A stretch of DNA of 64,000 nt from a bacterium (GCA_040752695.1 JBFMGO010000017.1:5048-69047); one strand, 5' to 3'. Shown: positions 1,168-37,694, counted from the stretch's first letter. Translations and numbers: made by a program. The notes: generated from the letters alone by a model not told the origin.

Positions 1168-1183
1168 TGGCATTCTATTTGCA
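1168..1183 (+). promoter_or_regulatory. sigma54 (-24/-12) promoter of the rhodanese/transglutaminase/RHS operon
   Basis: TGGCATTCTATTTGCA gives TGGCA-N6-TTGCA with exact GG-N10-GC spacing, preceded by about 150 bp of very AT-rich DNA. Confidence 0.72.
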
Positions 1184-1325
1184 AGGCTTCTATACTATCT
1201 ATGTACATCATCCATAATCCGGCTCAATACCAGGTTAAGTCCCGGTTATACTTCTCATTTGAAACACGGAAGCTTCAATTTCATAAAGCGTAATAAACAG
1301 TACAACAAGAGTTCATCTTTTTTGG

Positions 1326-2291
1326 ATGAACCAGAAAGAGACCAGGATTACTCTTATGATAAAAAAGCAATCTTCCATAATCAACATAGTCACCGCAGTC
1401 ACCATAGTAAACGTCATCACTGTAGTCATTATCTGCATTCTCATGAACTTATTCACCTGGAGTGTATTATCTGTCTCAACAGGACATGCATCGCAGCAGC
1501 AACAAAAGCAAATTGAAATTCCTGCTGAATTACTGGCCAGGAAATTGACAAGACGAAACCCTGATTTATTGATCTCTCCAGAATCAGTTTGGAAGAAATT
1601 AGAGAAAAAGCAGGAAATTATCCTTATTGATGTCCGGGACAGCCAGGAATTCGAAAAGCTCAGAATCCCCGGTTCCTTAAATATACCTCTTTTTGCACTC
1701 AAGACAAAGGCTTTTTTGAAGTCCAAGCCTTTGGTTTTAGTTAACGAGGGCTATACCTACAGTCAGTTGGAACAAGAATGCAAAAAGCTAAAAGGTTCCG
1801 GTTCTTCCGCTGTTTCGATATTGAAAGGTGGATTGCAGCAGTGGATGCGGAAAGGAGGAGCCTTTGAAGGAGATCTTTCTTTTCAGGGGAGACTCAATAA
1901 AATCCCTCCCTGGATTTTCTTTCAGGAGAGAAATTATGATGACTGGATTGTCGTCGATGTTTCCGAATCCAGGAAATCACATGTCCAGTCCTTACTCCCT
2001 GAGGCAGTCCATATACCTTTCTCGGATAATAATACGGAAGAATTTTTTTCGCGATTGACAACACTGATAAATGAACGCAAAGGCAATCTCTTTTACTCTG
2101 TTTTGATTCTGAACGATAAGGGGGAATATGGAGAAGTGGAAAAAATCGCTCAGAAAAAAGATATAGAAAATATTTTCTATCTGAGCGGAGGACTTGAAGA
2201 ATATCAATCATTTTTGCAGCAGCAGGCTCTTATCTGGCAGCCAAAGGCTGAAAATAAAAAGAAAGTTGAAAAGTGCCGGAGTTGTCAATGA
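1326..2291 (+). CDS. Membrane-anchored tandem rhodanese-like domain protein
   Basis: N-terminal hydrophobic segment. IILIDVRDSQEFEKLRIPGSLNIP and ILKGGLQQW in domain 1; VVDVS and YLSGGLEEY in domain 2. Ends in CRSCQ. Start may be 1356. Confidence 0.85.
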   Translation: MNQKETRITLMIKKQSSIINIVTAVTIVNVITVVIICILMNLFTWSVLSVSTGHASQQQQKQIEIPAELLARKLTRRNPDLLISPESVWKKLEKKQEIILIDVRDSQEFEKLRIPGSLNIPLFALKTKAFLKSKPLVLVNEGYTYSQLEQECKKLKGSGSSAVSILKGGLQQWMRKGGAFEGDLSFQGRLNKIPPWIFFQERNYDDWIVVDVSESRKSHVQSLLPEAVHIPFSDNNTEEFFSRLTTLINERKGNLFYSVLILNDKGEYGEVEKIAQKKDIENIFYLSGGLEEYQSFLQQQALIWQPKAENKKKVEKCRSCQ

Positions 2292-3253
2292 GAAAGATGC
2301 TGCTTGTGAGAAAGGTACTGTCCATGAGAAAGGTGAGCCAGCAGGGGAAAAAGTTCTCCAGGCGATATCTTTTCGTGGTATGCCTCTGCATGCTGTTTTC
2401 GGGGACAGGGCTGACAAGCACAGTGAGGCTGACAGGCACAGTGAATGTCTTTGGAGCCGATTATCCTGTTTTCCGGCAAATTCAATATAGCTTTACTCTT
2501 CAAAATAGAAGTAATCGTTTATTGAAAAAAGCGGAGTTTTGGACCTATGGACCGGTAAAACAAACCGCAACACAGCGGTGCGTAAGTATTGAAGCTTCTT
2601 ACCCCTATCAATTAATCACGGATGACTCGGGTAACCAGATTCTTGCCTTCTCCTTTGAGAATCTGCCGCCGTATGCCATCAAAATTATTACCATCAGGGC
2701 GGAACTCGAATTTTCAGAACTATCAAACCAATTGCCGGGTCAAGACACTCGCGCCTTCCTTCTGGCAGAAGAATATATCGAGTCCGATAATCCTGAACTT
2801 TCCGGATTTGCCAGGGGATTCCAGGGGCCGGAACCAAGTAAGGTTGTTGAAAATATATTTCACTGGATTACGGAAAATATAAAATACATGGGATATGTAA
2901 AGAATAACCGGGGCGCTCTTTATGCCTTCAGGAACAGGCAGGGTGACTGTACGGAATTCATGAACCTTTTTATTGCCCTTTGCAGGGCCAATACTATTCC
3001 TGCCCGTGGTATCGGCGGATATGTTTGTCCTGAAAGTTCCACTTTGAAAGCAGGTGAATATCACAACTGGGCGGAATTCTTCGAAGATGGGCTATGGAAA
3101 ATCGCTGATCCGCAAAAGAAGGCTTTGAGGACAAACCAATCGGCATATGTGGCCATGATGATTACCGGGGAGTCTTCCCAAAATCCCACCGGCAAGTTTT
3201 CTCAATTCCGGTTTTCAGGGGATGGACTTTATGTTGAAATGATGGATGAATAA
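2288..3253 (+). CDS. Transglutaminase-like (Cys-His-Asp) protein with N-terminal signal/anchor
   Basis: GDCTEF (Cys codon 2948-2950), ALCRANTIPARGIGG, YHNWAEF, WKIADP. ATG at 2288 overlaps the upstream TGA (ATGA), suggesting translational coupling. Confidence 0.9.
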   Translation: MRKMLLVRKVLSMRKVSQQGKKFSRRYLFVVCLCMLFSGTGLTSTVRLTGTVNVFGADYPVFRQIQYSFTLQNRSNRLLKKAEFWTYGPVKQTATQRCVSIEASYPYQLITDDSGNQILAFSFENLPPYAIKIITIRAELEFSELSNQLPGQDTRAFLLAEEYIESDNPELSGFARGFQGPEPSKVVENIFHWITENIKYMGYVKNNRGALYAFRNRQGDCTEFMNLFIALCRANTIPARGIGGYVCPESSTLKAGEYHNWAEFFEDGLWKIADPQKKALRTNQSAYVAMMITGESSQNPTGKFSQFRFSGDGLYVEMMDE

Positions 3254-3458
3254 ACAGATAAGAATCTGTTATTGTTGACTTATTATCCTTTTAAGTCTGG
3301 ATGGCAATGGTTAGGGAGGAAAGATCTTATGAAAGATCTTATGAGGAAAAATCATACACCGTTTTTGCTGACCACAATAGTAATGATTGATGGGTTAGAT
3401 GGGTTAACGGTATCGCATTTTTATTCGATGCTGAAAGAGAAGGAAGGAGACAAGAAAG

Positions 3459-6400
3459 ATGTGTAAAAAATTTAATTCCTGGTTATTTATCTTTGTAATT
3501 TTCCTTCTCCTTCCCTGTGTAACCCATGCCTCTCCTCTAACCTTATATGACACGAAAGGCTATCCGTATGATATTGAAGACGGCGGTTATCTCATTAATG
3601 GATATTCCGACGCCTATGATGGCTATTATTACTTATACGTTAATGACACTGGATATACAGGAACCCGATCAACGGTTGAGGATGATGGTCGGGAGGCAGT
3701 ATGTGATCCTCAATCGATAGCCGGACTGGATGTGAGCAGAAAAGTTTTTGTACCAGAGACTGAAAACTGGGCCAGATACCTGGAGATATTATCGAATCCA
3801 ACGGAGAGCGAAATCTGTGTTACGGTAAGGATTGGCGGGAATTTGGGTTCAGACAGCTCTACCCTTATTATTTTAACATCGGATGGAGATTCAACCTTTG
3901 AGAATACAGATACCTGGCTTGTAACTGACGATTCATCCGATGGAGGAGGGGACCCTTCGTTAGCACACATCTTCGAGGGGACGGATGCCCTGGAGAGTGT
4001 TGACACTGTCTTTGCAGCTAACAATAATGACCGTCCCTATTATCAATGGGACCAGGTATGCATACCACCCGGTCAAACCAGAATTTTCATGCATTTTGCC
4101 GTACAGCAGACCGATAGAAGCAGAGCTGTCGATGAAGCAAATTCTATAAAACCTCCATCTCCGGAGGTCACCTTAAGCGGTTTAAGTGATCTTGAGAAAG
4201 TCTGCATTGTTAACTGGTCACTCGGCCCCAGGGTAATTTCTACCATCCCGGCTCCGGATGCTGACAATGTTCCGCCAAATTCACATATTTTCGCCTATTT
4301 TAGTAAAGATCTCAATCCTTCGACAGTGAACAATTCCACTTTTTTAGTTTCAGGAAGCACGAGCGGTAATGTATCAGGGTCTACTCATTATTACCAAAAG
4401 ACGAGAATGGCTGAATTTACCCCTTCCGCTGATTTTAGTATGGGAGAAATCATTACTGTTCATTTGACTTCGCAGATCGAAGATACAGACTATCTGAGAT
4501 TACCATCAGGCTATCAATGGGTATTTACGGCAGGCAGCGCGTCCGATACGACACCTCCCTCGCCAATCTTGGATTTAGTGGCCTCAGACGATGGTAACGG
4601 AGGGATTCATCTGACGTGGACACCTGGCGGAGCATCTGATTTAGCCTACTATAAGGTTTATAGAAATACATCGGCAATAAACGATGTAACAGGATTAACG
4701 CCTGTTGGAATATCCCTTCAATCCAATTACATAGATATGTCTGCGACATTAGGAGTTACTTATTTTTATGCAGTCACTGCGGTAGATCGGAGTGGAAACG
4801 AGGACCTTTCCGTATCAGGTTACGGCCCAATAAGTGTATCCAATACCGTCCCGCCCAACCCTCCCACAGATGTTTCGATAGCTCTGGTAGATGAATCATC
4901 ACTTACCTTATCCTGGTCTCCGAATAGCGAACCGGATCTTGCCGGCTATAAGGTTTACTATGGCCTTGAAACTGGCACCTATAGTAATTTTTTTGATGTT
5001 GGCAATACTACTACGTATACACTGCATGGTTTAAGGGCTGGAGTAACGTACTATTTTGTCGTTGTCGCTTACGATACTGCGGGTAATGAAAGCGCTTATT
5101 CAGAGGAGAGATGGGAAATTCCTCTCTTGAATTATAGGATTACAGATGATGAAAATACATCGGATCAACCGACGGTCGGCATTGACTCGAACGGGAATCT
5201 TCATATTGCCTGGGTGGATGATAGAGACGGAAATTATGAAATTTACTATAAAATGATGACTGCCAAAAGGGATATCCTGATTGATGATACCCGGCTGACT
5301 TTTGATCCTGATGATTCGAGAAGACCTTCCCTGGGCATAGATTCGCAGGGTAAGGTTTATATTGCCTGGCACGATAGAAGGGGTGATACGGGTCCTGAGA
5401 TTTATTTTATGAAGGTCGATCCATCCCTGGATGACGAGGATGGTGACAGTGCAGATCCGGCAGTAATAAAAGTGATATCTGATACTGCCTTGACTCCTGA
5501 TGACGGAGTAAAATCAAGTTGCCCTGTGGTTGCCGTGGACAGCGCAGACACCATCCATGTCGTTTGGACCGAAGACCAGGATGGGGACAGGATCTTATAC
5601 ACAAAGCTCGACAGCGGTGGAACGAGGCTTATAGATGCCATAGTGATCTTTTCAGGGGGAGATTTCTGGAGATCGAATCCGGTAATCGGCACAGATGCAA
5701 ACCGAAATGTTCATATTGCCTGGAATGATAACTCTGCCACTTCCGACTATGAAATTTATTATAAAATGTTGGATGCTGCCGGTTCCACTTTGATAGAGGC
5801 AACGCAAATAACCTCTGACGATGGAAGTTCCTCAAAGAGACAATCACTGGCAGTTGACAGCCAGGGGAAAGTAATTCTTGTCTGGCATGATAAAAGAGGA
5901 AGCGATGCGCAAATATACTTCACGAAGCTTGACCCACACAATGATGACCAAAATGGAGATGCGGCAGATGCAGGGGCGATTAAGATCATCCCGGATAAAC
6001 GCCTGACCGGCGATGACCGGAAATCGAACACCCCTACCGTTGCCATAGATCGCTCTGATAATTGTCATATTGTCTGGTATGAAAATTGGGAATCAGGGGA
6101 TCATGGTGATCTTCATTATATGGTTGTAGATAACGAGGGGAATATAATCAAGCCGGATATCCCCTTGACCAGGGGTCAAACGGCAGCGACTTCTACTGAC
6201 TGGACCCTGGGAAGTATAGGGATAAATAAAACCGATGGCCATGCTCATATACTATGGTGTGATAATAGAGACGGGAACTACGAGATTTACTATTCTTCTT
6301 TCCCTCCACTTGCTCCAAAAGCATCGTTCATCTATCCGGGAGATGGCACCCAAGATGTACCACCGAATACCTCTCTACTGATATCCTTTAGTACCGAGAT

Positions 6401-9400
6401 GAATGCCTCAACCTTTAACGGCTCTACCATAACCGTCAGGGGCTCTGTTTCCGGTCTCCATACGGGAACCTTTACCTATGAGCCATCCGTAAAGAGGCTG
6501 AAAATTGATCCTGACGCTGATTTTACCCCTGGTGAACAAATTACGGTAGTCCTGAGCACAGATATACGTAATCTCCAGGGTGCAGGTCTGGCAAGCGAGT
6601 ATACCTGGTCTTTTACGACAGGTACACAAGCCGATACCATACCTCCATCCCGGGTCACTGGTCTTACGGCTCAAGCTATAGCTGAAAATGGGAGCGTTAC
6701 GTTAGCGTGGGACAATAATGGAGAACCTGACGTATACCTCTATAAGATATATCGCGATACCTCCCCTATTTCCGATGTAACCGGCCTTGAGCCCATTGCC
6801 GAGCATTATACAAACAGCTATCATGATTTTTCTGCTGCGGTTGGCCAGAATTATTACTATGCAGTCACTGCCGTAGATGTATACGGCAATGGAGATAAAT
6901 CAATAACGGGCTGTGGTCCGGTCACCCCGGCCAATAATCCCCCGCTTCCACCGGCAAGGATAAATGTTCAGCCTGCGCCAGCCGGTAATGTGGTGGATAT
7001 TTCCTGGGCAGCCAACCCGGAGACCGATTTAGCCGGATACAGGCTCTATTACGGGTTCTCCAGCGGCCAGTATGAACAGCCGATAGATATCGGCAACCAG
7101 ACCGCTTATCAATTTACCGCCACTCTTTGTCCGCCTTACTATTTTGCTTTTACCGCTTATGATACCTCAGGGAACGAGAGCACCTTGTCACCGGAAATTA
7201 TATTTTCCGGCAGTTGGGGATCGGGTGATTCGGGTGATTATAAGTTGGCCACAAGCGAGATGCCGAACAGTGGAGTTGCCTTTCACTGGATAGATATCAC
7301 AGCTTCCGGCATATCTACAGATATTACCGGGAATGATTCATCAGGGGAAGTGAGTATCGGTTTTGACTTTAAGTTCTATGAAAATAGGTATTCTACGGTG
7401 AGAGTAAGTTCCAATGGGTATCTTACTTTCGGGGGGTACGGAACAGAGCATAGTAACAGCGGTATTCCATCTGTCAATCAACCCGATAACCTGATCGCTC
7501 CCTTCTGGGACGATCTCTCTCCAAGTGGTGGAAAGATTTATTTCGAAACCAGAGGCGCTGCACCGAACCGGAGATTTATTGTGGAGTGGTACAATGTTTG
7601 TTTTAACGGTGATACCAGCACTCGGGTAACCTTCGAGGCAATCCTTTATGAAGGAAGCAATCAGATCGAATTCCAATACCTGAACGTGGAGGCAAACAGC
7701 GGAGCAAGAGGATCGGGTGCAACGATAGGGATCGAAAATGGTGATGGAACCAAAGGGCGTCAATTCTCCTGCAATACTAGTTCGTTAACCAATCGACTGG
7801 CCATCAGGTTTACCAAGCCGCACTTTGTCTCTTCAACCTACCCTGAGAGAAATGCCGTTAGTATTGCTCAAAATACCAATATCAACGTGAAGCTTTCAGA
7901 GAAAATAGATAAGAATACCATAACCGATACCAGCATTACCTTAACGGGCAGTATCAGCGGGCCTGTCACTTCTGCCTTTCGCTTTGCTGACACACTGTAC
8001 ACGCTTATCATCGATCCGGGTATCGGTTTCGCTGCCGGAGAAACCATTACCGTTGTGTTGAGCGGGAACATAGCCACCTTATCCGGAAGACAACTCGGCT
8101 GCGACTACCGCTGGACATTTACGGCAGGGGATACAAACGATACGACCCCGCCAGCGCCGCCTGAGGGAGTAATCGCGCAGACTGCCACGGCTGTCAATAG
8201 AGCGGTTATTTCCTGGACAGCCAATACGGAGCCCGACGTAGTCGGCTACAAAGTATATTATGGTTATTCCAGCGGCCAGTATGAGCAATCGATCGATGTG
8301 GGTAATCAAACCAGCTATCAGCTTATTGCAGCGACGTGTCCGCCTTATTATATTGTTGTTACAGCTTATGATGCGGCTGGATTCGAGAGCGCAACCTCTG
8401 GAGAAATAGAAATAGTAGAGTCCGCAATTATTGAAGATTTCGAATCCGGTTCACTGGCGGCCTGGAATAGGTCTTCCGGGACCATAAGCGGGGCTTACGC
8501 ACATGACGGCACAAGAGGCATAACTGACCCAGAGTGGATTTACCGGATTGACAATGCTGCAACGATACAACACGGTGATACCATTTCTGCCTGGTTTAGA
8601 CCGGGTTCCAGCAGCAGCGGCAGGTTTTACTTTGGGTTCGGTGCAGACAGTACCGGATGTTATTCATTCGTGATGGCGATGAACACAGGTCAAATCATTT
8701 TCCAGGACAACTCTGCCTATGGTTATATAAACCTAAACAGCGTCCCGCAATCGTGGACATCCGGCAAGTGGTATAGAGCGGAGGTCCGCTGGGAGACCGA
8801 TGGAATCACGACAGGTTATTTGTATGACAGTGATGGCACCACCCTATTGAACAGCCTCAGTCAACATTTATCGGGCAGAACGAGCGGCGGTGTTGCGATC
8901 CGTAGTTTTGGCGGTATTTCTATCGATACTATCCAAAGGGGTTGGGGACCGGCGAATAATAAAATAAGGAATACAATTCCTCCCAGGGATTCATCAGGAG
9001 TGCCGTTCAACACCGGTATTGCTGTCCTCTTTCATGAAGCCATGGACCTCAACAGCTTCAACAGTTCATCTATTACCGTAGAGGGAAGCGCAAGCGGTCT
9101 TCATTCTGGAAATGCAGCCTATTTACAGCCCCTGGCAGGCTTTGTCTTTAACCCGGACACACCTTTTACACCGGGCGAAACGGTTATTGTAACGATTGCC
9201 GGAAGTATCGCTACAGCCGCAGGATCTTCTTTGGGTTGTGACTACCGGTGGACATTTACGGTCGGTGATACCAGCGATGACACACCACCCCTATCCATAA
9301 CGGGCCTTACTGCTCAGGACGCCCCTGATGATACCGGAGGGAAGATAAATGTAAGCTGGGCTGCAAGCAGTGCCCAGGATCTTGCTTATTATAAGGTATA

Positions 9401-27092: not shown

Positions 27093-27106
27093 AGGTGAAT
27101 TTGACT

Positions 27107-27927: not shown

Positions 27928-27941
27928 TGATAAGGTGAACC

Positions 27942-28427
27942 ATGATTATTGTGAGTAATTCTACGCCGATCATCGCCTTTTCCAGAATCAATCAAATGGA
28001 GCTTCTCCAGGTAATCGTTGGAAAGCTTTTAATTCCTGCAGAAGTAGCCAATGAATTATCAGAATATGGAAAAGGAAAGAACAAGAGCTTAGACCTTAAT
28101 CAACATAAATGGATTACGGTGCAGGAAATCCAGGATAAGTCCAAAATGAGGCTGCTTCTCCCCTCTTTAGATAGGGGAGAAGCAGAAGTAATTGAGCTGG
28201 CGATTGAAACAAAGACAGATTTAGTTTTAATTGATGAGTTGACCGGCAGGAAAGTCGCAGAGTCACTTGATTTGAATATTATTGGCTCGGCGGGAATTTT
28301 GATAAAGGCAAAAGATCTAGGAAAAATACAAGCAGTTAAACCTTACATGGATGAGATGGTTGATAAAGGGATAAGGTATAGCGAGCGATTTTATAAGAGC
28401 TTATTACACCAGATAGGAGAATTGTGA
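27942..28427 (+). CDS. DUF3368-type PIN-domain toxin
   Basis: MIIVSNSTPII, LDRGEAEVIELA, LVLIDELTGRKVA, GSAGILIKAK. Confidence 0.88.
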   Translation: MIIVSNSTPIIAFSRINQMELLQVIVGKLLIPAEVANELSEYGKGKNKSLDLNQHKWITVQEIQDKSKMRLLLPSLDRGEAEVIELAIETKTDLVLIDELTGRKVAESLDLNIIGSAGILIKAKDLGKIQAVKPYMDEMVDKGIRYSERFYKSLLHQIGEL

Positions 28428-28455
28428 GTCAGAAGAAGGAGGTGTCATGTCTGGA

Positions 28456-28642
28456 GTGCGCCAGGCGAAGCTTGCGCTGTCCAATTGGTTGAGAAGCCAA
28501 CCTGGTAAAGTTTAACCAACAGCCAGAACCGAGTTTTGCGCCTATGCAGGTAACTGTATAGGTGAAGCGTAAACAAAGGAGGCAGTAGGCCGTAATCCTA
28601 TGAGGGTGAAGGCGGGTCAGCTCCGAAAACTGACAAACGTTG
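28456..28642 (+). mobile_element. Group II intron 5' fragment (domain I), copy 1
   Basis: Begins GTGCG. GNRA-capped hairpins TTGGTT-GAGA-AGCCAA and GCCTATGCAG-GTAA-CTGTATAGGT, and a GAAGCGTA motif. Roughly 90% identical by eye to 30451-30637. No RT ORF and no DV/DVI. Confidence 0.8.
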
Positions 28643-28740
28643 AGAAGGCGAAGTAGGTGTCAGAGCTTGATTTGATATATATGGAAAAGGTGATAAAGTG
28701 TGTAGGATTTAGGATTAGGAATAGGATGGGAAGTTGAAAG

Positions 28741-28972
28741 ATGCCAGTTGTCATTCAGAGATGGCAAGGCACGGATAAGAAGATCCCAAAACACATAAAT
28801 AAATTGATAAAGGATATTCAAAGAAACAAGTATGAAAGTGTTGGAAAACCGGAAACCGCTAAAACATAATTTATTGGATTACTGGTCGCGTCGAATTATC
28901 AGTGAACACAGGCTGGTTTACAAAAATGGAAACGACCGGATAATGATAGCTCAGTTGAGATATCGTTATTAG
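28741..28972 (+). pseudogene. yoeB: Txe/YoeB-family toxin pseudogene
   Basis: WQGTDKK...INKLIKDIQRN...GKPE, frameshift near 28853, then PLKHNL..YWSRRIISEHRLVY...IAQLRYRY*. N-terminus missing; no YefM partner. Confidence 0.85.
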
Positions 28973-29010
28973 AAAAAGTATAATAGTAAAAAATGGAGAT
29001 GGTGAGGTGA

Positions 29011-29325
29011 ATGGCATTTTTTAAAGACTTCCGTAATAGGCATATCCGATTAACACATGAAAGACAGAATCATTTGGAAACTGATCATCCAGAAATGTTT
29101 GGGCAGATTGACAAGATAGAGCATACCTTGACGAATCCTGATATAGTTGTCAGGTCAAAAACAGATCCTGACGTTGAATTATTTTATCGACATTATCCTG
29201 CCACACCTGTTACTGAAAAGTATCTATGTGTGGTAGTTAAAGTATTAGCTGGTGACATGTTTATCATTACGGCCTATTTTACAGACACGATCAAAAAAGG
29301 CGAGATATTATGGGTAAAGAAGTAA
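29011..29325 (+). CDS. Putative toxin (DUF4258/BECR-like nuclease fold) paired with DUF2283
   Basis: IRLTHERQNHL..HPEM...TLTNPD...KYLCVVVK...FIITAYFTD; overlaps the downstream DUF2283 gene. Confidence 0.7.
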   Translation: MAFFKDFRNRHIRLTHERQNHLETDHPEMFGQIDKIEHTLTNPDIVVRSKTDPDVELFYRHYPATPVTEKYLCVVVKVLAGDMFIITAYFTDTIKKGEILWVKK

Positions 29326-29525
29326 AAATATGGTACGACAAAGAAGGAGATTACCTTGAAGTTATCTTTGAGCAAAAAGCCGGATACTTCAAGGAGACGG
29401 AAAATGACGCAATAATGGAAAAAGTAGATAATGAGGGAAACATTATTGGTTTTTCCATTCTCAAAGTGAGTGCCTTGAAAGAGGAAAAACCTTTTTCAAT
29501 CAGTCTTAAAAGCCATGCTGCGTAA
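29310..29525 (+). CDS. DUF2283-family antitoxin-like protein
   Basis: VKIWYDKEGDYLEV...VDNEGNIIGFSIL. Confidence 0.85.
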   Translation: MGKEVKIWYDKEGDYLEVIFEQKAGYFKETENDAIMEKVDNEGNIIGFSILKVSALKEEKPFSISLKSHAA

Positions 29526-29663
29526 GATTAGGGATGGGTTTACATTTGGTTAGGTTTACATTTGGTTATATATAAAAATTGGTTATGTACAAAAACGAGA
29601 AGATGTGGTGCCAACAATTCCTACGTTTTTTGGAGTGTGTAAAGTAAGTAAGGTAAAGTAAGT

Positions 29664-29709
29664 AAAGTAAGCCAATAGTTAGAAGCGAGTTTTGCGTAAT
29701 ACAGGTAAC
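29664..29709 (+). mobile_element. Degenerate internal fragment of the same group II intron (copy 3)
   Basis: AAAGTAAGCCAATAGTTAGAAGCGAGTTTTGCGTAATACAGGTAAC aligns with AAAGTTTAACCAACAGCCAGAACCGAGTTTTGCACCTATACAGGTAAC of copy 2. Confidence 0.6.
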
Positions 29710-29735
29710 CGCGCGGAGGTAAAGAGGTAAAACGG

Positions 29736-29993
29736 ATGCCAATAATCAGCCAATTTCTTGGGATCATCATTGCGATGTATTGGGATGATCATTTGCCCCC
29801 ACATTTTCACGCCAAATATGGAGGGTATGAAATTATAGTAAATATACTCAATGGAGTAATAGAGGGGAAGTTTCCCAAAAGAGCGCTCAGACATGTTCTG
29901 GAATGGTATGAGTTACATAAAGATGAATTGCTGGAAGATTGGGAACTTTGTCGAAAGCAAGAACAACCAAAACCAATTGAACCATTGGAGTAA
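29736..29993 (+). CDS. DUF4160-family protein (putative TA toxin)
   Basis: MPIISQFLGIIIAMYWDDHLPPHFHAKY...EWYELHKDEL...IEPLE. Confidence 0.9.
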   Translation: MPIISQFLGIIIAMYWDDHLPPHFHAKYGGYEIIVNILNGVIEGKFPKRALRHVLEWYELHKDELLEDWELCRKQEQPKPIEPLE

Positions 29994-29995
29994 AA

Positions 29996-30289
29996 ATGAT
30001 TTTGCATGTTACAAATGCAATATATATTGGGGATTATAAGGTAGAAGTATCTTTTAATGATGGACGCAAAGGGGTGGCCGATTTATCGGAGTCCTTAAAA
30101 GGCCCCGTTTTTGAGCCTCTGAAAGACAAGGCAATTTTTTCTCAACTGAAAGTTGATGAAGTCCTTGAAACAATTACCTGGCCAAACGGAGCAGATTTTG
30201 CACCAGAGTATTTATATTTTCAAGCGCTTAAGAGCAAAGCAGAACCAGAATTGCAGGCGAAATTTAAGGAGTGGGGATACGTTACCTGA
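29996..30289 (+). CDS. DUF2442-family protein (putative TA antitoxin)
   Basis: VSFNDG...GPVFEPLKD...TITWPNGADFAPEYLY; the usual partner of DUF4160. Confidence 0.9.
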   Translation: MILHVTNAIYIGDYKVEVSFNDGRKGVADLSESLKGPVFEPLKDKAIFSQLKVDEVLETITWPNGADFAPEYLYFQALKSKAEPELQAKFKEWGYVT

Positions 30290-30450
30290 TTAGTGATTAC
30301 TCAGGTAGATAGGTTATAGGCGTTTAGACTACGAAATCAGGGTCAGCCTTTGAATTTACAAGTAACAAACTGATAATACTCTCGATATAAGGTAATGTAT
30401 TTATCCAACGATAAATAAAAACAGCATTAAGAAGGATGTGTCAGTCTTGA

Positions 30451-30717
30451 GTGCGCCAGGCGAAGCCTGCACTTATCCAGTTGGTTGAGAAGCCAACCTG
30501 GTAAAGTTTAACCAACAGCCAGAACCGAGTTTTGCACCTATACAGGTAACTGCATGGGTGAAGCGTAAACTAGGGAGACAGTAGGCCGTAATCCGATGAG
30601 GGTGAAGGCGAGTCAGCTTCGAAAATGACAATCGTTGTGGAGTAAGCTGACGTGATTCAAGACACGGAAAGCAGCAACGAAGCCATCGTTAAGAGGTGAG
30701 ATGGTGGAAACTCCACT
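30451..30717 (+). mobile_element. Group II intron 5' fragment (most of domain I, including EBS1), copy 2
   Basis: GTGCG start directly after GTCTTGA. GTGGAGT...ACTCCAC stem encloses the hairpin CGTG-ATTCAAGA-CACG (30651-30666), whose loop TCAAGA is the reverse complement of the 5'-exon end TCTTGA. Confidence 0.85.
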
Positions 30718-30863
30718 GAAATCAGGAATGGGATAGTGGAAGGGAAAATGTCAAAGCGTGCTCTTAAAATGGTTTTCGAGTGGTATGAGCAGCATACTGA
30801 CGAATTACTCATGAATTGGGAGTTGGCGAAGGAAAGAAAGCCATTAAAAAAATAGAGCCTTAG
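30718..30863 (+). pseudogene. C-terminal fragment of a second DUF4160 gene, fused to the truncated intron
   Basis: EIRNGIVEGKMSKRALKMVFEWYEQHTDELLMNWELAKERKPLKK, frameshift, IEPL. Homologous to the C-terminal half of 29736-29993. Confidence 0.82.
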
Positions 30864-30914
30864 ATCCATTCGAGAAGGGGCATATTTGAAAATAATATGA
30901 AATCTGCAAGTAAA

Positions 30915-31304
30915 TTACCAAATAGTCTTAATAGAAGGGAGTTTTTGGAGTGTTTCATCTTTGGTAATGAGGGGGCAACTAAGATATTTCGCTGTTGAAG
31001 CAATTATTTTGTCATGTAATTCAGGGACTTCTTTCAGGGCAACCATTTTCTGAAGAATGGGATAGTCGAGTGCAATGAGTACAAAATTCTCACTCATATA
31101 CATTCTCTTAAATAAATTTTTGAAATTGAAAGTAATACGCTTTTTCTCAAAGATACTCAGTGATTCAGCAATGACAATCGAAGGAATAAAAATAACAGCA
31201 TCTCCTTTTTCACATTTTTCAAAAATCTCTAAAGCTTTAGGACTGATTTGGGGGCTGTCTGTAAACCACCAGAGAAGTGCATGGGTATCAGCTACGAAGT
31301 TCAT
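30915..31304 (-). CDS. VapC/PIN-domain toxin
   Basis: FVADTHALLWWF, IPSIVIAE, ELHDKIIASTA...PLITKDE. Confidence 0.9.
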   Translation of the reverse strand: MNFVADTHALLWWFTDSPQISPKALEIFEKCEKGDAVIFIPSIVIAESLSIFEKKRITFNFKNLFKRMYMSENFVLIALDYPILQKMVALKEVPELHDKIIASTAKYLSCPLITKDETLQKLPSIKTIW

Positions 31305-31311
31305 AGATACC

Positions 31312-31527
31312 TTACAATCCTATTTTGCTATCGAGAGATTCTTTTGCAGAGTCAATGTCTTGTTCAGTAATTTCTATCCCTTTGAGAATACCTTTAAGCG
31401 AGATAACTTTTTTCCCGGAAGGTGTGAGACGTTTGAGAACCGATAGTTTCAGATCCATAACTTCTTTCTCAATATTTTCGATTTTATGGAGAATTTCAAC
31501 AGTGCTGTTCGCATCTGTATGCTTCAT
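31312..31527 (-). CDS. Putative antitoxin of the PIN toxin
   Basis: ATG at 31527 with AAGGAG RBS; VISLKGILKGIEITEQDIDSAKESL; immediately upstream of the PIN gene. Confidence 0.72.
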   Translation of the reverse strand: MKHTDANSTVEILHKIENIEKEVMDLKLSVLKRLTPSGKKVISLKGILKGIEITEQDIDSAKESLDSKIGL

Positions 31528-31708
31528 GATTATTATCTCCTTATGATATAGCGTAAGCTGATAAATAGTAAGCTTGTGATGGTAATAGCTTAACAAGATG
31601 ATCTTAGCATGAGGAAAATTCTTTGTCAAAAGGGAAAAGAACATTGATCAAACCATTCGTTCGGAGCTTCCGAAGAGGAGGAAGAATATTGTCTTTGCTG
31701 GTAGGTAG

Positions 31709-32089: not shown

Positions 32090-32173
32090 GTTATGAGCGA
32101 AAGAGTTAAATACCAAAACAGGAAAGAAACGAGAAGGATAAATCATAGATCCAAAACGGAAAGGAGTGATATC

Positions 32174-35100
32174 ATGGGAAAGAGAGCACTCGAAAAGAGA
32201 GCATTGGGAAAGAGAGCACTGGGAAAGAGAAGCTTGGAAAAGGGGGCATTGGAAAAGATACCCTTTAGGAAACAACCCCTGTCTTTTTTACCGCAGTTAA
32301 GACAATCATTGATATTGCTTTCACTTTACCTATTGCTTTCTCTGTTCATCTTTCCCCTCATCTCTCCCCTCACCTCTCTCCTCCCCCTGCCCCTGTCTTC
32401 ACCCCTCTCCCTGCCCTTATCTTCGCACCTCTCCCTCCCTTCTTCCCTCACCTGCCTCCTTCCCCTCCCCTTCTCCCCCTCCCCTGCCTTTGCAGCCGGT
32501 GACTCCCTCTGTGCGCGGGTCAAGATCGAGGTTCGTCAGGAGTTGACTCTGGAGCGGCAGGCATTTGATGCGCATATGCGGATCAACAATGGCCTTTCCA
32601 CCATCACCCTGGAAAGCGTGGACATAGACGTTTCTTTCAGCGATGCGGAAGGGAATACGGTTCGGGCAAGCTATGATCCCGGCGACACCAGTGCGCTTTT
32701 TTTCATACGGCTGGATAGCATGGATAACATAAACAATGTAACCGGCACAGGATCTGTCGGGCCGTCAACCTCGGCTGACATTCACTGGCTGATAATACCC
32801 GCACCGGGCGCATCGAACGGATTGCAGGAAGGCGCGCTGTATTACGTAGGAGCAAGGCTCACTTACACGATTGGCGGTGAGGAGCATGTTACTGACGTCA
32901 CGCCGGATTATATTTTCGTCAAGCCGATGCCCATGCTGACCCTGGATTATTTCCTTCCGCGCGATGTCTTTGGCGACGATGCCTTTACTACTGAGATCGA
33001 GCCGCCCGTTCCCTATAATCTTGGGGTCAGGGTAAAGAATGACGGTGCGGGCACTGCCAAAAACCTCAAGATCGACTCTGCCCAGCCTAAAATCATCGAG
33101 AATGAGCTGGGCCTTTTGATCAACTTCGTGATCGAAGGCAGTGAGGTAAATGGAAATCAGGCCACCAAGAGCCTTCTGGCTGATTTTGGGAATATTGCAC
33201 CCCATACTTCGGGTGTGGCGAGGTGGATCATGACCTGTACTCTGTCCGGACAGTTTATATCATTCGAAGCGGAGTTTTCCCATGCGGATGAGCTTGGGGG
33301 GGAGCTCACCTCACTGATAGATGCTGTCAATACCCATTTTCTGGTTCGTGATGTGCTGGTGGACCTGCCTGGCCGGGATGCCATCCGTGACTTTCTGGCC
33401 AGTGATGGCGGGGTGTACAGGGTTTATGAATCCGAGAGTGTGGACACCGATGTTGCGGATCAGTCCTCTGATGCGAGCCTTCAGCTTGCGGGAGAGTCCG
33501 CGACCCAGGTCCGTTATACGCTATCGGCTCCAATCACCAGCGGCTTTATGTACGTACAGTTACCCGATCCGACCAACGGCCAGATGGTGCTCAGTGAGGT
33601 AGTGCGTTCCGATGGCAAGCGCATCAAGGCGGAAAATGCCTGGCTCTCCAAGACCCGCAAGGAGGACCACTCCTGGAATCACCTTATCAATCTGTTCGAT
33701 GTCAACACCACTAACTCATATACCATTGTCTTCGGGAATCCCGCCGACATCCCCGATCCTCCGGTGCTTCAGTATATTCCGGACAGAACACGGACGGAAG
33801 GAGAGCAAATGTCCTTTATCGTCGAGGCGAGCGATCCGGATGGGACAGTGCCTTCAATCACTGCTGCTCCTTTGCCTCCTGGTGCACAGTATACCGATCA
33901 GGGAAATGGCACGGGGATTTTTGACTGGACGCCGCAGGTTGGCCAGGCGGGGCGGTACGAGATCACCTTTACTGCCTCGGATGGTGTTTTGGAGGCTTCC
34001 CGGCGGGCTGCCCTCGTTATTTCTTCCCTGGTCACTGACTCGGATGGCGATGGCCTGCCCGATGACTGGGAGCTTGAGCATTTCGGGAGTCTGGATAGAA
34101 CCGGAACAGGCGACTTTGATGAAGACGGCCTGTCGGATGAGGATGAATACGCACACCAAATGGACCCCGGCCGCAGCAATGCACCGACTGTCCCGGTGAT
34201 TGCCTCACCGGCAAACAACTCCGAAGTGACAGTTCTTCAGCCGGATCTGGCAATTCAAAACAGCACCGATCCTGATGGAGATAATATCGTATATTCCTTT
34301 GAGGTTTATTCGGATCAGGGGATGACCAGCCTTGTGGCCAGCCGGCCGGATGTGCCTGAGATAACGGCAGGGACATCATGGCACCTGCCGCAGGCACTGC
34401 AAGACAATACCTGGTACTACTGGCGTGTCAGGGCAACCGACGGCATGTGCACGAGCCAGTGGGTCTATGGCCGTTTCTTTACCAATACGGTCAATGATCC
34501 TCCCGGAGCGTTTCAGGTGAGCAGCCCCAAGGATGGCTCGGCGGTGGACAGCAGGCAGCCCGTGCTGCAAGTCACCAACAGCACGGATGCAGATCAGGAC
34601 GTGATCACCTATGCCTTCAGTGTGTATGCAGACAGCGGCAGCGGCCCCGGTACCCTGATTGCCTCTGCATCGGGTATTCCACAGGGTGGGAATCAGGCTG
34701 CTGGCACCACATCCTGGACCATAGATACGACAATGGAAGACAATACACGCTATTTCTGGAAGGCAGTGGCCACGGATTCACACGGAGCGAGCATCGAAAC
34801 CCAACTCGCTTCATTCTTCGTAAACACTGCGAACGATGCGCCACAGGCGCCGGTCATTTCATCCCCTGGCGCCGGCAGCGAATTAACTATTCCGGAACTT
34901 GACCTTGTAGTCAATAATACGGTTGACGCAGATGGCGATGCCTTGAGTTATTTCTTTGAGCTCGACCAGGTGAATACCTTCGACAGCGCGGCCAAACGAA
35001 CCTCAGGCGGGCTGGATGAGGGGAGCGGCACCACTACCTCCTGGCATGTGAGCGGCCTCAGTGATAATACCCTGTATTATTGGCGCGTCAAGGCCAATGA

Positions 35101-36946
35101 CGGGACAGCGGAAAGCGGCTGGGCGCAGGGAAGCTTTATGATCAATACGGTCAATGACAGCCCCTCGGCTCCAACCTTGAAGAACCCTGGCGAAGGGGCC
35201 CAGGTGCAGACCCTCACACCGCAGCTTGAGGTGAATCCTTCAATGGATGTCGATCTTGACAGCCTCACTTACTCTTTCGAGGTTTACTCACAAGCCGATT
35301 TGATAACCCTGGTTGCTCACGGCCAATCGAGCACTCCTGCCTGGACAGTATCTTCCGCCCTTCAGGACAACACCTGGTATTACTGGAGCAGCCGTGCCGT
35401 AGACGAGCATGAAGATGTCAGCGCCTGGATGAATACGGCATCCTTCTTCGTGAATAACAACGGCGTTGACGATCCTCCGACGATCAGCGTGACAGAGCCT
35501 TCTGACGATCTGATAACCAATGGAACTTCTGTCACTTCCATCACCATCCGCTGGGATGACCATGATCCTGACAGCAATGCCGATATAGCCCTCTATCGCG
35601 ACAACGATTCCTTTGGCGAAGATGGTGTTTTGATTGCCGAAGGGATAAAAGAAGATCCAGATGGAGGAGATAATGATGCTTATACCTGGGATATCAGCGG
35701 CCTGGAAGAAGGCACCTCCCTGGAAGAAGGCACCTATTATGTGTATGCCCGGATAACCGACGGGACTTCTCCCATATCGGCTTACGCCCGGGGAGCTGTC
35801 ACGATCGACAGAACGCCGCCGCAGGTCAATGCTGCACCGGCTGGCGGAACGTATGTCGGATCTCGAAGTGTAACCCTTCAGTCCAACGAGACAGCCAGCA
35901 TTTACTATACCCTGGATGGAAGTGATCCGACATGCGCCTCCCTCAGCTATAGCACCCCAATTGCGATAACCGAGACTGCTACCCTCAAGTTTATGGCCGT
36001 AGATACGGCAGGGAACAAGAGCAATGTAATGGCTGAGACCTATACCATCGAGGCGGTCCCTGAGGTTTCGGGCTTCTCGATCGATGTAGAGGATATCACG
36101 ATCCAGCCTGGTGTGGCTTTCGACGTAACCATAACGGCCGTGGATAACCGGGATATGGTTTTCAGCGGATTCTCTGGATATGTAACCTTATCCGTATCCA
36201 GCGGGTCTATCCATCCCACTGCCACCGACCGGTTCACAGATGGTATATGGAGGGGGCAGGTTCAAATAACCGGTGCCGACGGCGTTGTTACCATGACGGC
36301 TTCAGCGGACAGTCACACAGGGACAAGGGAATTGCATATGGCATGTGCGGTTCCACAGGCTCCACTCCTCGAATACCCGGCTGAAGGAGCTGAAAATATC
36401 GATACTGGCACCGCCTTTACCTGGAATACTGTCGAGAGTGCGGACCATTATACTTTGCGCGTTGCCACGGATTATGGGCTTAATAATACCATCTATACTC
36501 AGGACTCCATCACTGCTCCCTACTTCCAGCCATCACCTGCCCAAGACTTCTTTGCACTGCTCGCAGCCGGACAGACGTACTACTGGGGAGTGAAGGGTGT
36601 TAATGAATGCGGAGAGGGTCCGTTCAGCAATCCCCGGTCCTTCATGATCACGGGAGATATAGCACCAGGCATAACCCTGGTCACTCCAGCAGGCGGAGCA
36701 ATTCTCGATGCCGGGCAACCATACCTTATTCAGTGGAATTTCACCGGTAATCCCGGATCGACGGTCCAGATCAGGTATAACACAGGCGGACGTACCTGGT
36801 ATGACATTGCCACGGCCGTACCCATAGGGGATCGGAGCTTCAGTTGGAATATACCGGCAATTGCAGCCAGTACCTGCAAAATCAAAATCGAGTCGGAGCA
36901 GGATCGTACCATTTACCATATCAGTGACCTGTTTACCATCGAATAG
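32174..36946 (+). CDS. Large secreted Ig/FN3-rich protein, probable partner of the giant RHS protein
   Basis: AAGGAG RBS before ATG 32174. Expanded signal region ending PAFA-AGD, then SLCARVKIEVRQELTLERQAFDAHMRINN domain, putative Ig domain (FDWTP), Ca-binding DSDGDGLPDDWE, four repeats ending L.DNT.YYW, and chitobiase-C-like IYYTLDGSDP. Confidence 0.88.
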   Translation: MGKRALEKRALGKRALGKRSLEKGALEKIPFRKQPLSFLPQLRQSLILLSLYLLLSLFIFPLISPLTSLLPLPLSSPLSLPLSSHLSLPSSLTCLLPLPFSPSPAFAAGDSLCARVKIEVRQELTLERQAFDAHMRINNGLSTITLESVDIDVSFSDAEGNTVRASYDPGDTSALFFIRLDSMDNINNVTGTGSVGPSTSADIHWLIIPAPGASNGLQEGALYYVGARLTYTIGGEEHVTDVTPDYIFVKPMPMLTLDYFLPRDVFGDDAFTTEIEPPVPYNLGVRVKNDGAGTAKNLKIDSAQPKIIENELGLLINFVIEGSEVNGNQATKSLLADFGNIAPHTSGVARWIMTCTLSGQFISFEAEFSHADELGGELTSLIDAVNTHFLVRDVLVDLPGRDAIRDFLASDGGVYRVYESESVDTDVADQSSDASLQLAGESATQVRYTLSAPITSGFMYVQLPDPTNGQMVLSEVVRSDGKRIKAENAWLSKTRKEDHSWNHLINLFDVNTTNSYTIVFGNPADIPDPPVLQYIPDRTRTEGEQMSFIVEASDPDGTVPSITAAPLPPGAQYTDQGNGTGIFDWTPQVGQAGRYEITFTASDGVLEASRRAALVISSLVTDSDGDGLPDDWELEHFGSLDRTGTGDFDEDGLSDEDEYAHQMDPGRSNAPTVPVIASPANNSEVTVLQPDLAIQNSTDPDGDNIVYSFEVYSDQGMTSLVASRPDVPEITAGTSWHLPQALQDNTWYYWRVRATDGMCTSQWVYGRFFTNTVNDPPGAFQVSSPKDGSAVDSRQPVLQVTNSTDADQDVITYAFSVYADSGSGPGTLIASASGIPQGGNQAAGTTSWTIDTTMEDNTRYFWKAVATDSHGASIETQLASFFVNTANDAPQAPVISSPGAGSELTIPELDLVVNNTVDADGDALSYFFELDQVNTFDSAAKRTSGGLDEGSGTTTSWHVSGLSDNTLYYWRVKANDGTAESGWAQGSFMINTVNDSPSAPTLKNPGEGAQVQTLTPQLEVNPSMDVDLDSLTYSFEVYSQADLITLVAHGQSSTPAWTVSSALQDNTWYYWSSRAVDEHEDVSAWMNTASFFVNNNGVDDPPTISVTEPSDDLITNGTSVTSITIRWDDHDPDSNADIALYRDNDSFGEDGVLIAEGIKEDPDGGDNDAYTWDISGLEEGTSLEEGTYYVYARITDGTSPISAYARGAVTIDRTPPQVNAAPAGGTYVGSRSVTLQSNETASIYYTLDGSDPTCASLSYSTPIAITETATLKFMAVDTAGNKSNVMAETYTIEAVPEVSGFSIDVEDITIQPGVAFDVTITAVDNRDMVFSGFSGYVTLSVSSGSIHPTATDRFTDGIWRGQVQITGADGVVTMTASADSHTGTRELHMACAVPQAPLLEYPAEGAENIDTGTAFTWNTVESADHYTLRVATDYGLNNTIYTQDSITAPYFQPSPAQDFFALLAAGQTYYWGVKGVNECGEGPFSNPRSFMITGDIAPGITLVTPAGGAILDAGQPYLIQWNFTGNPGSTVQIRYNTGGRTWYDIATAVPIGDRSFSWNIPAIAASTCKIKIESEQDRTIYHISDLFTIE

Positions 36947-37004
36947 CTGTTTGAGAAAAGGGGGGAGTCGTCAATCCAAAACTCATTTAAATTTCGGAGG
37001 GATC

Positions 37005-37694
37005 ATGAAGAAGTTCGTTTTGGTTAGTTTGCTGCTGGGATTCATTCTCTCAGCAGGCCGAGTACAGGCAACATCAACAGGCTTTCAAAATGCAGGATTC
37101 GAAGATGGAAACCTTCAATTTTGGAACCCATCAGGCGTTGTAACCATATCTGAAGGTGATGATTTTACCAGACCCTTTGAAGGGCGCTATATGGCCATGA
37201 TTTCATCTCCAGCGAAAAATGGCGGTGGATATGTGTATGATAATTATCTAAGCCAGGACCTCGATACGTCGATTGGAACAATTTCTTTCTGGTATAACTT
37301 TTTTACCAGGGATTATGATCTCGATGATCCCGGCTTTGCACTGTCAATTAATAATAGTGACATATTTTCACTCAGGGCCAGCGATGCCGATGTTGAATAC
37401 CATGATCCTGTCTGGACGACAGGCTGGCGTCAATTCAGTTATGATCTCTCCGCACTATCGGGAACAATCACGGTCAATTTGAGTATCTTTGGTGGTAATA
37501 CTGGTTCCGGTGGTGGAGACGATGACAATACCTTAAATTCCTGGGTATACATCGACTCTGCGGAACCGGTTTTTACACCAGGGCCGGCTGCACCTATACC
37601 TGAGCCCGGCACAATGGCACTTTTTCTGTGTGTGGGATTCTTTTTCCTGTTCATGTTCTTAGGGCAAAGGCAGAAATTAACGGCAACAAAGTAG
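37005..37694 (+). CDS. PEP-CTERM sorting-signal protein
   Basis: GGAGG RBS, signal peptide MKKFVLVSLLLGFILSAGRVQA, FQNAGFEDG beta-sandwich start, and C-terminal IPEPGT + TM helix + basic RQK tail. Confidence 0.9.
   Translation: MKKFVLVSLLLGFILSAGRVQATSTGFQNAGFEDGNLQFWNPSGVVTISEGDDFTRPFEGRYMAMISSPAKNGGGYVYDNYLSQDLDTSIGTISFWYNFFTRDYDLDDPGFALSINNSDIFSLRASDADVEYHDPVWTTGWRQFSYDLSALSGTITVNLSIFGGNTGSGGGDDDNTLNSWVYIDSAEPVFTPGPAAPIPEPGTMALFLCVGFFFLFMFLGQRQKLTATK

Follow-up and report, generated by a model that had tools for sequence, protein, structure and literature searches.

The stretch of DNA analyzed here, referred to as the window, is 64,000 nt long (GCA_040752695.1 JBFMGO010000017.1:5048-69047), and its positions 1168-37694 hold a candidate system centered on a giant RHS protein with a signal peptide for the general secretory (Sec) pathway. 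A preliminary description of this region had proposed a Sec-exported adhesin-RHS toxin accompanied by a dedicated transglutaminase, a rhodanese-like protein without catalytic cysteine, a secreted partner and a PEP-CTERM protein. By listing of open reading frames (ORFs), translation and Pfam searches, the genes of the candidate system were found to be real and intact, and signal peptides were found on all four principal proteins (rhodanese, transglutaminase, giant and partner). From its sequence the locus can be read as a Sec-type RHS polymorphic toxin with a recurrent, previously undescribed accessory gene set; full-text literature searches, with matches judged by titles and abstracts, revealed no description of this gene set. 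As set out below, it is gene linkage that supports the candidate system. Downstream of the giant gene the order is a 175-aa ORF, toxin-antitoxin (TA) modules, a 1617-aa multi-Ig protein (the partner), a 229-aa PEP-CTERM-like protein and an nSTAND1-WD40 protein. The run had been portrayed as co-oriented, which is true of most of its genes, the exceptions being a PIN gene (30915-31304) and its partner (31312-31644) on the minus strand. The genes and protein regions on which the argument turns are:

1326-2291, plus strand: exported tandem pseudo-rhodanese, 321 aa; PF00581 (E 1.5e-17, two stretches), with a C-terminal CxxC (CRSC)
2273-3253, plus strand: exported transglutaminase-fold enzyme, 326 aa counted from GTG 2273; PF01841 (E 2.4e-18)
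3459-17228, plus strand: giant aa 1-4590, lineage-specific adhesin array by alignment; signal peptide (aa 1-24), Big_5/fn3 supermodules, PKD, HYR and beta-helix
17229-22541, plus strand: giant aa 4591-6361, conserved stalk core; fn3, Big_7, Big_13, Ig-like and CarboxypepD_reg
22542-22823, plus strand: giant aa 6362-6455, Gly/Cys-rich linker between stalk and RHS part, recognized in the sequence
22824-26393, plus strand: giant aa 6456-7645, RHS plug, shell and core; RHS_repeat 1.1e-75, RHS core 7e-13
26394-27092, plus strand: giant aa 7646-7877, polymorphic tip of 232 aa; linker module (tip aa ~17-118) and His-rich C-terminal domain
27095-27622, plus strand: candidate immunity protein, 175 aa, named by position only, 3 nt past the toxin stop
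32093-36946, plus strand: partner protein, 1617 aa from ATG 32093; multi-Ig, secreted
32465-33772, plus strand: conserved head of the partner, aa ~125-560 (~430 residues), with a variable Ig/FN3-like array behind it

The giant protein is encoded, as first described, by a single unbroken ORF (3459-27092) of 7877 aa with a 24-residue signal peptide at its N-terminus, and the gene is preceded by a ribosome-binding site (AAGGAGA) 8 nt 5′ of its ATG. Assembly collapse or artefact is unlikely, since the internal DNA repeats of the gene are at most 81% identical. Pfam domains detected in the protein include five Big_5, many fn3, PKD, HYR, two right-handed beta-helices, Big_7, Big_13, CarboxypepD_reg and RHS. 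The RHS repeats (PF05593, E 1.1e-75) fall into 9 stretches that form an array of shell length, and the RHS core (PF03527, E 7e-13) ends in DPYGL (aa 7641-7645), with DPLR at aa 7618, 24 residues upstream; this DPxGL aspartyl autoproteolysis motif is a predicted cleavage site. The linker is separated from DPYGL by ~1,190 residues. When the giant was compared with its homologues, long high-identity alignments were found to start at aa ~4575-4690 and to stop at 7644-7651, while before aa ~4575 the giant gave only short module-level matches (beta-helix, fn3) and none of the fetched loci matched aa 1-300. The window's own genome carries numerous paralogues of the beta-helix, HYR and PKD modules found in the N-terminal 4,590 residues. 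Judging from these alignments, only residues ~4591-7645 are common to the homologues and the first 4,590 are lineage-specific. The preliminary description overlooked that, on this comparison, the conserved family is confined to the last ~3,050 residues of the giant, and likewise that the TA block appears to be an insertion.

The stalk core was found to be 45-64% identical to its homologues in 12 metagenome loci and in genomes G051, G020 and G024. A search with aa 5537-6420 detected 414 proteins at E <= 1e-20 among 7998 scored; the usual length of the family is ~2,000-4,300 aa among the searched proteins, which were of at most 4331 aa. Microbulbifer aggregans encodes the stalk and the RHS part in two ORFs, and the break between them falls where the window has its Gly/Cys linker. 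The M. aggregans locus (L094; G024:C3, 10172-19998, minus strand) has a 5060-aa stalk frame and a 1499-aa RHS ORF 57 nt apart; the RHS ORF is without an evident signal peptide, which either puts its export in question or reflects a frameshift. Within the window's own genome no second full RHS gene was found, and a lone 50-residue RHS core-end fragment was located at C36:45366-45515.

Beyond DPYGL the giant ends in its tip, of which the last ~110-115 aa make up the His-rich domain (modelled as 26739-27089) and the preceding linker module is common to a few proteins. The tips of homologues are unrelated after DPxGL and measure 141-223 residues. The last ~110 aa of the window's tip recur at the C-termini of 26 cluster representatives (E <= 1e-10); 10 of these were scanned, and RHS families were found in 5, one of which also carries PT-HINT. 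The His-rich domain has five invariant residues (H58, H70, R89, D94 and P95) and was modelled by AlphaFold2 (AF2) with a predicted local distance difference test score (pLDDT) of 87.7, and the model had no fold match in the PDB (0 at E <= 0.001). A hypervariable C-terminal domain shared with other scaffolds is what RHS polymorphic toxins carry, and the tip is a predicted toxin whose His-rich domain seems to behave like a polymorphic-toxin domain. An atlas look-up returned MafB-like features for the tip (0.93, 155 shared features), which were kept as a lead only. As for the immunity gene claimed at the outset, a 175-aa ORF does begin 3 nt past the giant stop; its assignment is that of a candidate by position, with no match in Pfam or NCBIfam. 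Similar small ORFs follow the RHS stop in L028, L054/G051, L083 and L046.

The sequence of the shell was next set against solved RHS structures and the delivery systems to which they belong. Its best PDB matches were Rhs proteins (8h8a, E 3.2e-61, and several others annotated as belonging to the type VI secretion system [T6SS]), with alignments of up to ~520 residues; a solved teneurin-like protein matched at E 9.9e-31, and Tc toxins matched at E 3.8e-6 at the core end only. One explanation would be that the RHS protein is a T6SS effector fired by the genome's own T6SS. T6SS Rhs effectors (8h8a, 7q97 and 8uy4) offer the closest shell/core sequences and share the DPxGL site and the toxin-plus-immunity logic, and two TssC sheath genes of the genome score over the cut-off, on contigs C8 and C110. 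Unlike those effectors, the giant begins with a cleavable Sec signal, and 6,400 residues of extracellular-type stalk, built of Ig, FN3 and beta-helix modules, precede its shell; it lacks a PAAR, VgrG or chaperone context. The preliminary description had already recognized no VgrG, PAAR, WXG or TcB sequence, and none of these families, nor SpvB, was listed for the giant in the Pfam scans; no PAAR family hit was obtained in the 96.6%-complete genome, the TssC genes lie only on other contigs, and no T6SS gene recurs in the neighborhoods examined. We consider a T6SS effector very improbable. The independence from T6SS proposed earlier is plausible on the strength of the Sec signal, the lack of PAAR and VgrG, and a conserved neighborhood free of T6SS genes, with the two TssC genes as the point that speaks against it. 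The Tc (ABC) toxins likewise have an RHS cocoon with a cleaved C-terminal toxin, encoded beside a very large partner, an arrangement that invites an analogy of the window's partner to TcA. However, only the last ~100 core residues match TccC (E 3.8e-6); no SpvB, TcB mid-domain or propeller family was found in the Pfam scans, and the partner head is a beta-sandwich chain for which the fold search gave no TcA-like match.

Architectural parallels were also found among the teneurin-like proteins (TLPs), as presented in the main text of Raoelijaona et al. 2026 (PMC13018210). Similar to the window's giant, TLPs combine a Sec signal, variable N-terminal adhesion domains and a transthyretin (TTR)-like domain before the shell (CarboxypepD_reg at giant aa 6165-6227) with a YD/RHS shell, bipartite DPxG autoproteolysis, a small polymorphic toxin and a downstream immunity gene, for which the window has a candidate; they also occur, like the present system, in Thermodesulfobacteriota and other social bacteria. 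The giant differs from them in having no detected NHL propeller and in a shell far nearer to Rhs (3.2e-61 vs 9.9e-31). Of the TLP superfold (FN-plug, NHL beta-propeller and YD-shell), no NHL was among the Pfam matches listed for aa 4595-6920 at E <= 1, in a sequence-only scan where the HMMER speed filters drop most matches weaker than ~E 0.1. The main text of the TLP paper, supplements aside, mentions neither transglutaminase nor rhodanese, and for export and anchoring it offers only predictions based on signal sequences. This likeness bears on a further explanation, by which the locus would encode a teneurin-like device for cell-cell adhesion or recognition, the shell being structural and the tip in many members no antibacterial toxin. 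It would fit with the TTR-like CarboxypepD_reg before the shell, as in TLPs (PMC13018210), with a window tip that has no known toxin family or fold match, and with four loci (L015, L018, L048 and L088) that leave no room for an immunity gene. It accords poorly with (i) the retention of the DPxGL motif and the hypervariability of the sequence after it; (ii) the occurrence of the C-terminal tip domain on other RHS and PT-HINT proteins, a distribution typical of polymorphic toxin domains; (iii) the immunity-sized ORFs after the stop in the window, L028, L054/G051, L083 and L046; and (iv) orphan cassettes of an RHS end plus a small ORF in G184 and G175. We regard this explanation as improbable.

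Two genes precede the giant. The first was proposed to encode a Cys-less rhodanese-like protein, and this proved correct: the fold is present by PF00581 (E 1.5e-17), yet both active-site loops, VLVNEGY (aa 137) and LILNDKG (aa 260), have N at the catalytic Cys positions, such that the catalytic Cys of a sulfurtransferase is missing from the loops. No active-site Cys was conserved across 32 aligned homologues; their sole invariant cysteines are C317 and C320, which form the CxxC kept in 32/32, and the protein of the window terminates in CRSC-Q. The homologues carry ordinary signal peptides. The second gene was said to be a translationally coupled transglutaminase. The rhodanese stop (TGA, 2289-2291) overlaps an ATG (2288-2290) in an ATGA arrangement, which makes ATG 2288 the probable start, GTG 2273 being also possible. 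The product matches PF01841 (E 2.4e-18), and its triad of C226, H264 and D279 is invariant in 44/44 sequences, with codon 2948-2950 encoding the invariant catalytic Cys226. With its Cys-His-Asp triad in place, the enzyme is apparently active. Among solved structures it is closest to 3isr (E 1.2e-9), a putative cysteine protease, and PF01841 is the only Pfam family matched.

The presence of a transglutaminase-fold enzyme beside a giant exported protein recalls the LapA/LapG/LapD system, in which a giant surface adhesin is controlled by a LapG-type protease and a catalytically dead regulator domain; LapG is a periplasmic transglutaminase-like cysteine protease that acts on the adhesin LapA. In contrast to that system, the window's enzyme matches PF01841 and no LapG-type family, the giant has a Sec rather than a type I secretion system signal, and there is no LapD-like cyclic di-GMP receptor. 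A second parallel is found in Sec-type RHS toxins, where inactive transglutaminase domains are fused behind the signal peptide and a surface-anchoring role has been proposed (Zhang et al. 2012, PMC3482391). These fusions represent a fusion counterpart of the gene linkage seen here, and the support that they offer is indirect. In the portion of that paper considered, the Sec-dependent toxins (there termed type II secretion system [T2SS]-type) resemble the window in their signal peptide, RHS repeats, variable C-terminal toxin and bacterial Ig domains, as well as in a transglutaminase-fold module that is tied to an RHS toxin and has a suggested role at the cell surface. They differ in that the window's transglutaminase is a separate gene with an intact and invariant triad; the window further has a pseudo-rhodanese and a partner with a conserved head, and the same portion of the paper mentions no rhodanese.

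The fourth principal protein, announced as a 1.6-kaa secreted Ig/FN3 protein, is the 1617-aa multi-Ig ORF at 32093-36946; the database gene call is shorter (1590 aa, from ATG 32174, which is Met28). Its head had no match in Pfam or NCBIfam, and of 8000 proteins scored against it 1741 reached E <= 1e-3. Among these, the top 120 are 63-80% identical in the head and differ in their downstream domains. An alignment of 40 head sequences had a mean column identity of 69%, and C16 and Q25 (CARVKIE..Q), near the mature N-terminus, were invariant. The AF2 model of the head (pLDDT 87.2) is a chain of beta-sandwich domains. A single co-fold of the head domain with transglutaminase residues 60-326 scored 0.00 against a mark of 0.32; it was run without controls and is evidence neither way. 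DUF11/CARDB-like features of the head came from an atlas look-up (0.84) and are a lead only. Two further ideas were ruled out: (i) that the head domain occurs in both the giant and the partner, the sole blastp match being a 195-aa FN3-like stretch (E 0.002); and (ii) that the heads form two paralogous clades by context, for on a quick tree the heads from transglutaminase and RHS contexts are intermixed and the RHS-context label needs 9 changes over 12 rows. The partner of the window has an unusual leader (32093-32420, plus strand) of 108 residues, with KRALE-like repeats and a long Leu/Ser/Pro-rich hydrophobic stretch followed by an AFA signal-peptide end, unlike the short ordinary signal peptides of its homologues. 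The genome also contains a second, divergent head-domain gene (G000 C191:377-1612; 45-46% identity) at the start of a 5.3-kb contig.

Conservation of the neighborhood was examined in 80 head-anchored metagenome loci with 10-kb flanks, which were mapped with the window proteins and fall into 68 clusters at 95% identity; upstream genes were counted in the 54 clusters whose upstream sequence reaches 1.5 kb or more. Directly upstream of the head, 36 clusters have a transglutaminase alone, 11 an RHS core alone and 1 the two together, and 6 have neither (raw upstream counts before clustering: 45, 12 and 10 of 66 loci). In the 11 RHS-type clusters the upstream gene is a same-strand homologue of giant residues ~4600-7648 with 45-64% identity. 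A rhodanese follows the partner gene in 20/21 informative clusters, i.e., those where the head gene is complete and the sequence continues, and a very large ORF opens after this downstream rhodanese in 12/12 loci with room, 8 of them matching the giant. The commonest order is transglutaminase, head protein, rhodanese and giant; other orders exist. Ten loci were obtained when species genomes were searched with the transglutaminase: a rhodanese is upstream in 6/10 and a partner homologue directly downstream in 6/10, and two of the four loci lacking the upstream rhodanese have almost no upstream sequence. The partner alignments in these transglutaminase-found loci start at residue ~110-135, at the CARVKIE..RQELTLERQAFDA motif. 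The exact order of the window recurs in G051:C40, with rhodanese, transglutaminase, a 4818-aa stalk-RHS protein (59% identity over giant aa 4591-7648) and partner, while M. aggregans has a 274-aa ORF, transglutaminase, the 5060-aa stalk, the 1499-aa RHS protein and partner, and G020 has two clusters with different orders. The co-occurrence asked for in the preliminary description was therefore observed: rhodanese, transglutaminase, stalk-RHS and the CARVKIE..RQELTLERQAFDA-headed protein are linked in many loci and in several gene orders, including organisms labelled as different phyla, and the four genes do not stand together in the window alone. Several stalk-RHS and head-domain proteins also share the longest contig value of their source (17864, 19051, 40213, 14557 and 21710), a hint of co-located pairs and a lead only. 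A fifth conserved gene was sought by all-against-all clustering of the unlabelled ORFs in the 80 loci, which yielded only shadow frames, N-termini of downstream giants and transposase-like ORFs.

The loci carry labels of Desulfobacterota, Gammaproteobacteria and others, as well as of a small phylum with 20 species genomes. Across 209 genomes of the GTDB class of one such metagenome-assembled genome, 14 were found to have the head; 11 have the transglutaminase, 10 of these together with the head, and 9 have the stalk core, 6 of them shared. The tip was found in none of these 209 genomes, so there was no tip-immunity pairing to compare. Among the 20 species genomes of the window's phylum, a full-length head was present in 2 and in neither of two same-genus relatives; the system is sporadic in this phylum. 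Base composition was not decisive on transfer.

The RHS and partner genes lie very close together. Counted from the RHS stop to the point in the partner gene where the head-domain match begins, the distance is 107-585 nt in five loci: four (L015, L018, L048 and L088) have an empty slot of 107-343 nt, and G051 has 585 nt. Across loci this slot is the site where variation collects, with immunity-sized ORFs in the window and four other loci, the orphan RHS-end cassettes of G184 and G175, and transposase-like ORFs in some loci. ORFs with the motif PLRIxYPGAFYHVTSRGNER recur between the RHS and head genes or upstream of the head gene (L046 2805-5170, L045, L077 and L089-L091), and they presumably resemble REP-associated/IS200-like tyrosine transposases. 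In comparison with the other loci, the 4.5-kb TA block that occupies the slot in the window is best read as an insertion splitting an otherwise tight RHS-partner pair.

We consider it fairly probable that the window holds an intact copy of a recurrent four-part, Sec-dependent RHS toxin system that is independent of T6SS, matured by the enzyme pair and docked through the head. By this account all four proteins would reach the periplasm via Sec; the RHS shell would enclose the variable C-terminal toxin and cut it off at DPYGL; the transglutaminase-fold enzyme, in the periplasm or at the surface, would mature the large proteins by cleavage or isopeptide cross-linking, with the pseudo-rhodanese as its adaptor or thiol/disulfide cofactor; and the conserved head of the partner would dock or anchor the stalk-RHS protein at the cell surface, such that the tip may reach neighboring cells on contact without a T6SS. 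Relative to the usual form, the copy in the window would have gained ~4,590 N-terminal residues from adhesin modules common in its own genome, and TA modules would have been inserted between its immunity and partner genes.

An alternative account of the same linkage is that of two separable modules that form no complex, the rhodanese and transglutaminase being a general maturation or release device for very large exported proteins and the stalk-RHS and head proteins its independent clients in a shared surface-protein island, comparable to LapG and LapA. It draws on the position of the transglutaminase, which adjoins whichever large gene comes first, the head protein (36/54 clusters) or the giant (window, G051 and Microbulbifer), on the enzyme pair preceding other large secreted proteins in L004 (beta-helix) and L005 (Laminin_G_3), and on a window region rich in other giant surface proteins. 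What it leaves aside is that the RHS and partner genes still adjoin each other in G185, where the enzyme pair is missing, that the RHS-partner spacing is tight (107-585 nt to the head-domain match), and that the head keeps 61-80% identity from locus to locus in a partner protein that otherwise varies, a pattern more suggestive of a conserved binding partner than of a client tag. The two-module account is in our judgment unlikely, though it is the more serious of the alternatives to a single four-part system.

Several findings weigh against the four-part toxin system and are gathered here. With regard to the linkage, (i) no RHS gene is visible upstream in 36/54 clusters, where it may sit downstream past the 10-kb flank; (ii) the rhodanese and transglutaminase of L004 and L005 precede large proteins that have no head; (iii) on a 6.48-Mb contig of G185 a divergent stalk-RHS gene, a partner and a PEP-CTERM gene stand with no transglutaminase or rhodanese within the 60 kb examined, nor genome-wide at E <= 1e-20, so that the two modules, the enzyme pair and the RHS plus head, can occur apart; and (iv) the loci derive from a pattern search favoring close relatives, and kin are not independent. 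With regard to the proteins, (i) the tip has no Pfam hit and no PDB fold match, and four homologous loci (L015, L018, L048 and L088) have no room for an immunity gene; (ii) a PDB search with the head model gave only generic Ig-like/beta-sandwich chains (template modelling score <= 0.22); (iii) T6SS sheath genes, the two TssC named above, are present in the genome; (iv) no conserved outer-membrane export component was found in the neighborhood loci, which leaves the outer-membrane passage unexplained; and (v) physical links among the four proteins are hypothetical.

If the four-part system is taken one step further, it may constitute a new T6SS-independent route of RHS delivery in diderms, in which the partner, a beta-sandwich analogue of TcA, would dock or translocate the capsule, and the transglutaminase and CxxC pseudo-rhodanese would covalently assemble or license it. 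We hold this extension to be possible but doubtful; were it true, it would suggest a mode of display and firing for Sec-exported RHS toxins without a known secretion system. RHS toxin delivery is understood for the T6SS and the Tc translocator, whereas it is an open question how outer-membrane bacteria display, hold and release RHS toxins that carry a signal peptide, and a gene set that travels with such toxins provides concrete candidates for the missing display and release machinery. Cultured carriers are at hand in M. aggregans, which has the whole cluster, and in Desulfosarcina ovata, from which a stalk-RHS homologue is known by name. Neither the head nor the His-rich C-terminal domain, both common in metagenomes, has a Pfam family.

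The remaining features of the region lie outside this conserved set. The TA array reported between the immunity candidate and the partner gene was confirmed as five type II modules identified by family, of which one is decayed (YoeB-like) and one is on the minus strand:

27655-31644, mixed strands: inserted block of type II TA modules, outside the conserved system
27655-27927 and 27942-28427: UPF0175 and DUF3368, TA module by family match
28741-28972, plus strand: broken YoeB, split over two frames, with PF06769 on the second piece (E 2.8e-12)
29011-29325 and 29310-29525: PBECR-like and DUF2283, TA module by family match
29736-29993 and 29996-30289: DUF4160 and DUF2442, TA module by family match
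30915-31304 and 31312-31644, minus strand: PIN and its partner, an inverted pair

Two further elements had been assigned to the system, a sigma-54 promoter in front and a PEP-CTERM gene at the end, and neither was borne out as a conserved part:

1168-1182, plus strand: sigma-54-like -24/-12 site TGGCATTCTATTTGC (TGGCAT-N5-TTGC), ~145 nt 5′ of the rhodanese gene, one mismatch
37005-37694, plus strand: secreted protein of 229 aa whose tail resembles PEP-CTERM (IPEP, a hydrophobic segment, basic residues), by sequence motif

The promoter site is plausible in its position, and its statistics are at chance level: 6 sigma-54-like matches were observed in the window vs 3.47 expected, and 14/100 shuffles reached 6. 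As a conserved feature it was ruled out, a strict site being present upstream of the cluster in 2/36 related loci. The PEP-CTERM gene shows the PEP motif, hydrophobic stretch and basic residues but scores below both curated cut-offs (TIGR02595, 15.3 bits vs 16; Pfam, 13.3 vs 20.7). The genome has three full-length exosortase genes and a fourth partial match. The partner gene is also followed by a PEP-CTERM ORF in L014, L083 and G185 (Pfam 21.5 bits, above the cut-off) and by one with a similar tail in L097. No tblastn match of the window's own protein was found in the 80 loci at 1e-6. Such a gene stands after the partner in 2/6 RHS-type loci with room and in 0/23 transglutaminase-type loci; the suggested anchoring through an exosortase substrate is conjectural.

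Directly 3′ of the PEP-CTERM-like gene, at 37885-43707 (plus strand), is a gene for a 1940-aa nSTAND1 NTPase with a long WD40 array (PF20703, E 8.9e-115; WD40, E 7.7e-164), which lies outside the conserved neighborhood of the other loci. A second large surface-protein cluster follows at 46058-58753 (plus strand) and encodes a TPR and Big_13 protein (735 aa), an LVIVD-repeat protein (2386 aa) that includes a Peptidase_C13-like stretch, and a beta-helix protein (1077 aa) with a C-terminal FadL/TodX-like outer-membrane barrel; contigs C135, C112 and C41 of this genome carry paralogous sets. Near its 3′ end (61160-63989, minus strand) the window encodes a phosphopantetheinyl transferase and an FabD/NMO-type acyltransferase-enoyl reductase, which are unrelated to the system.

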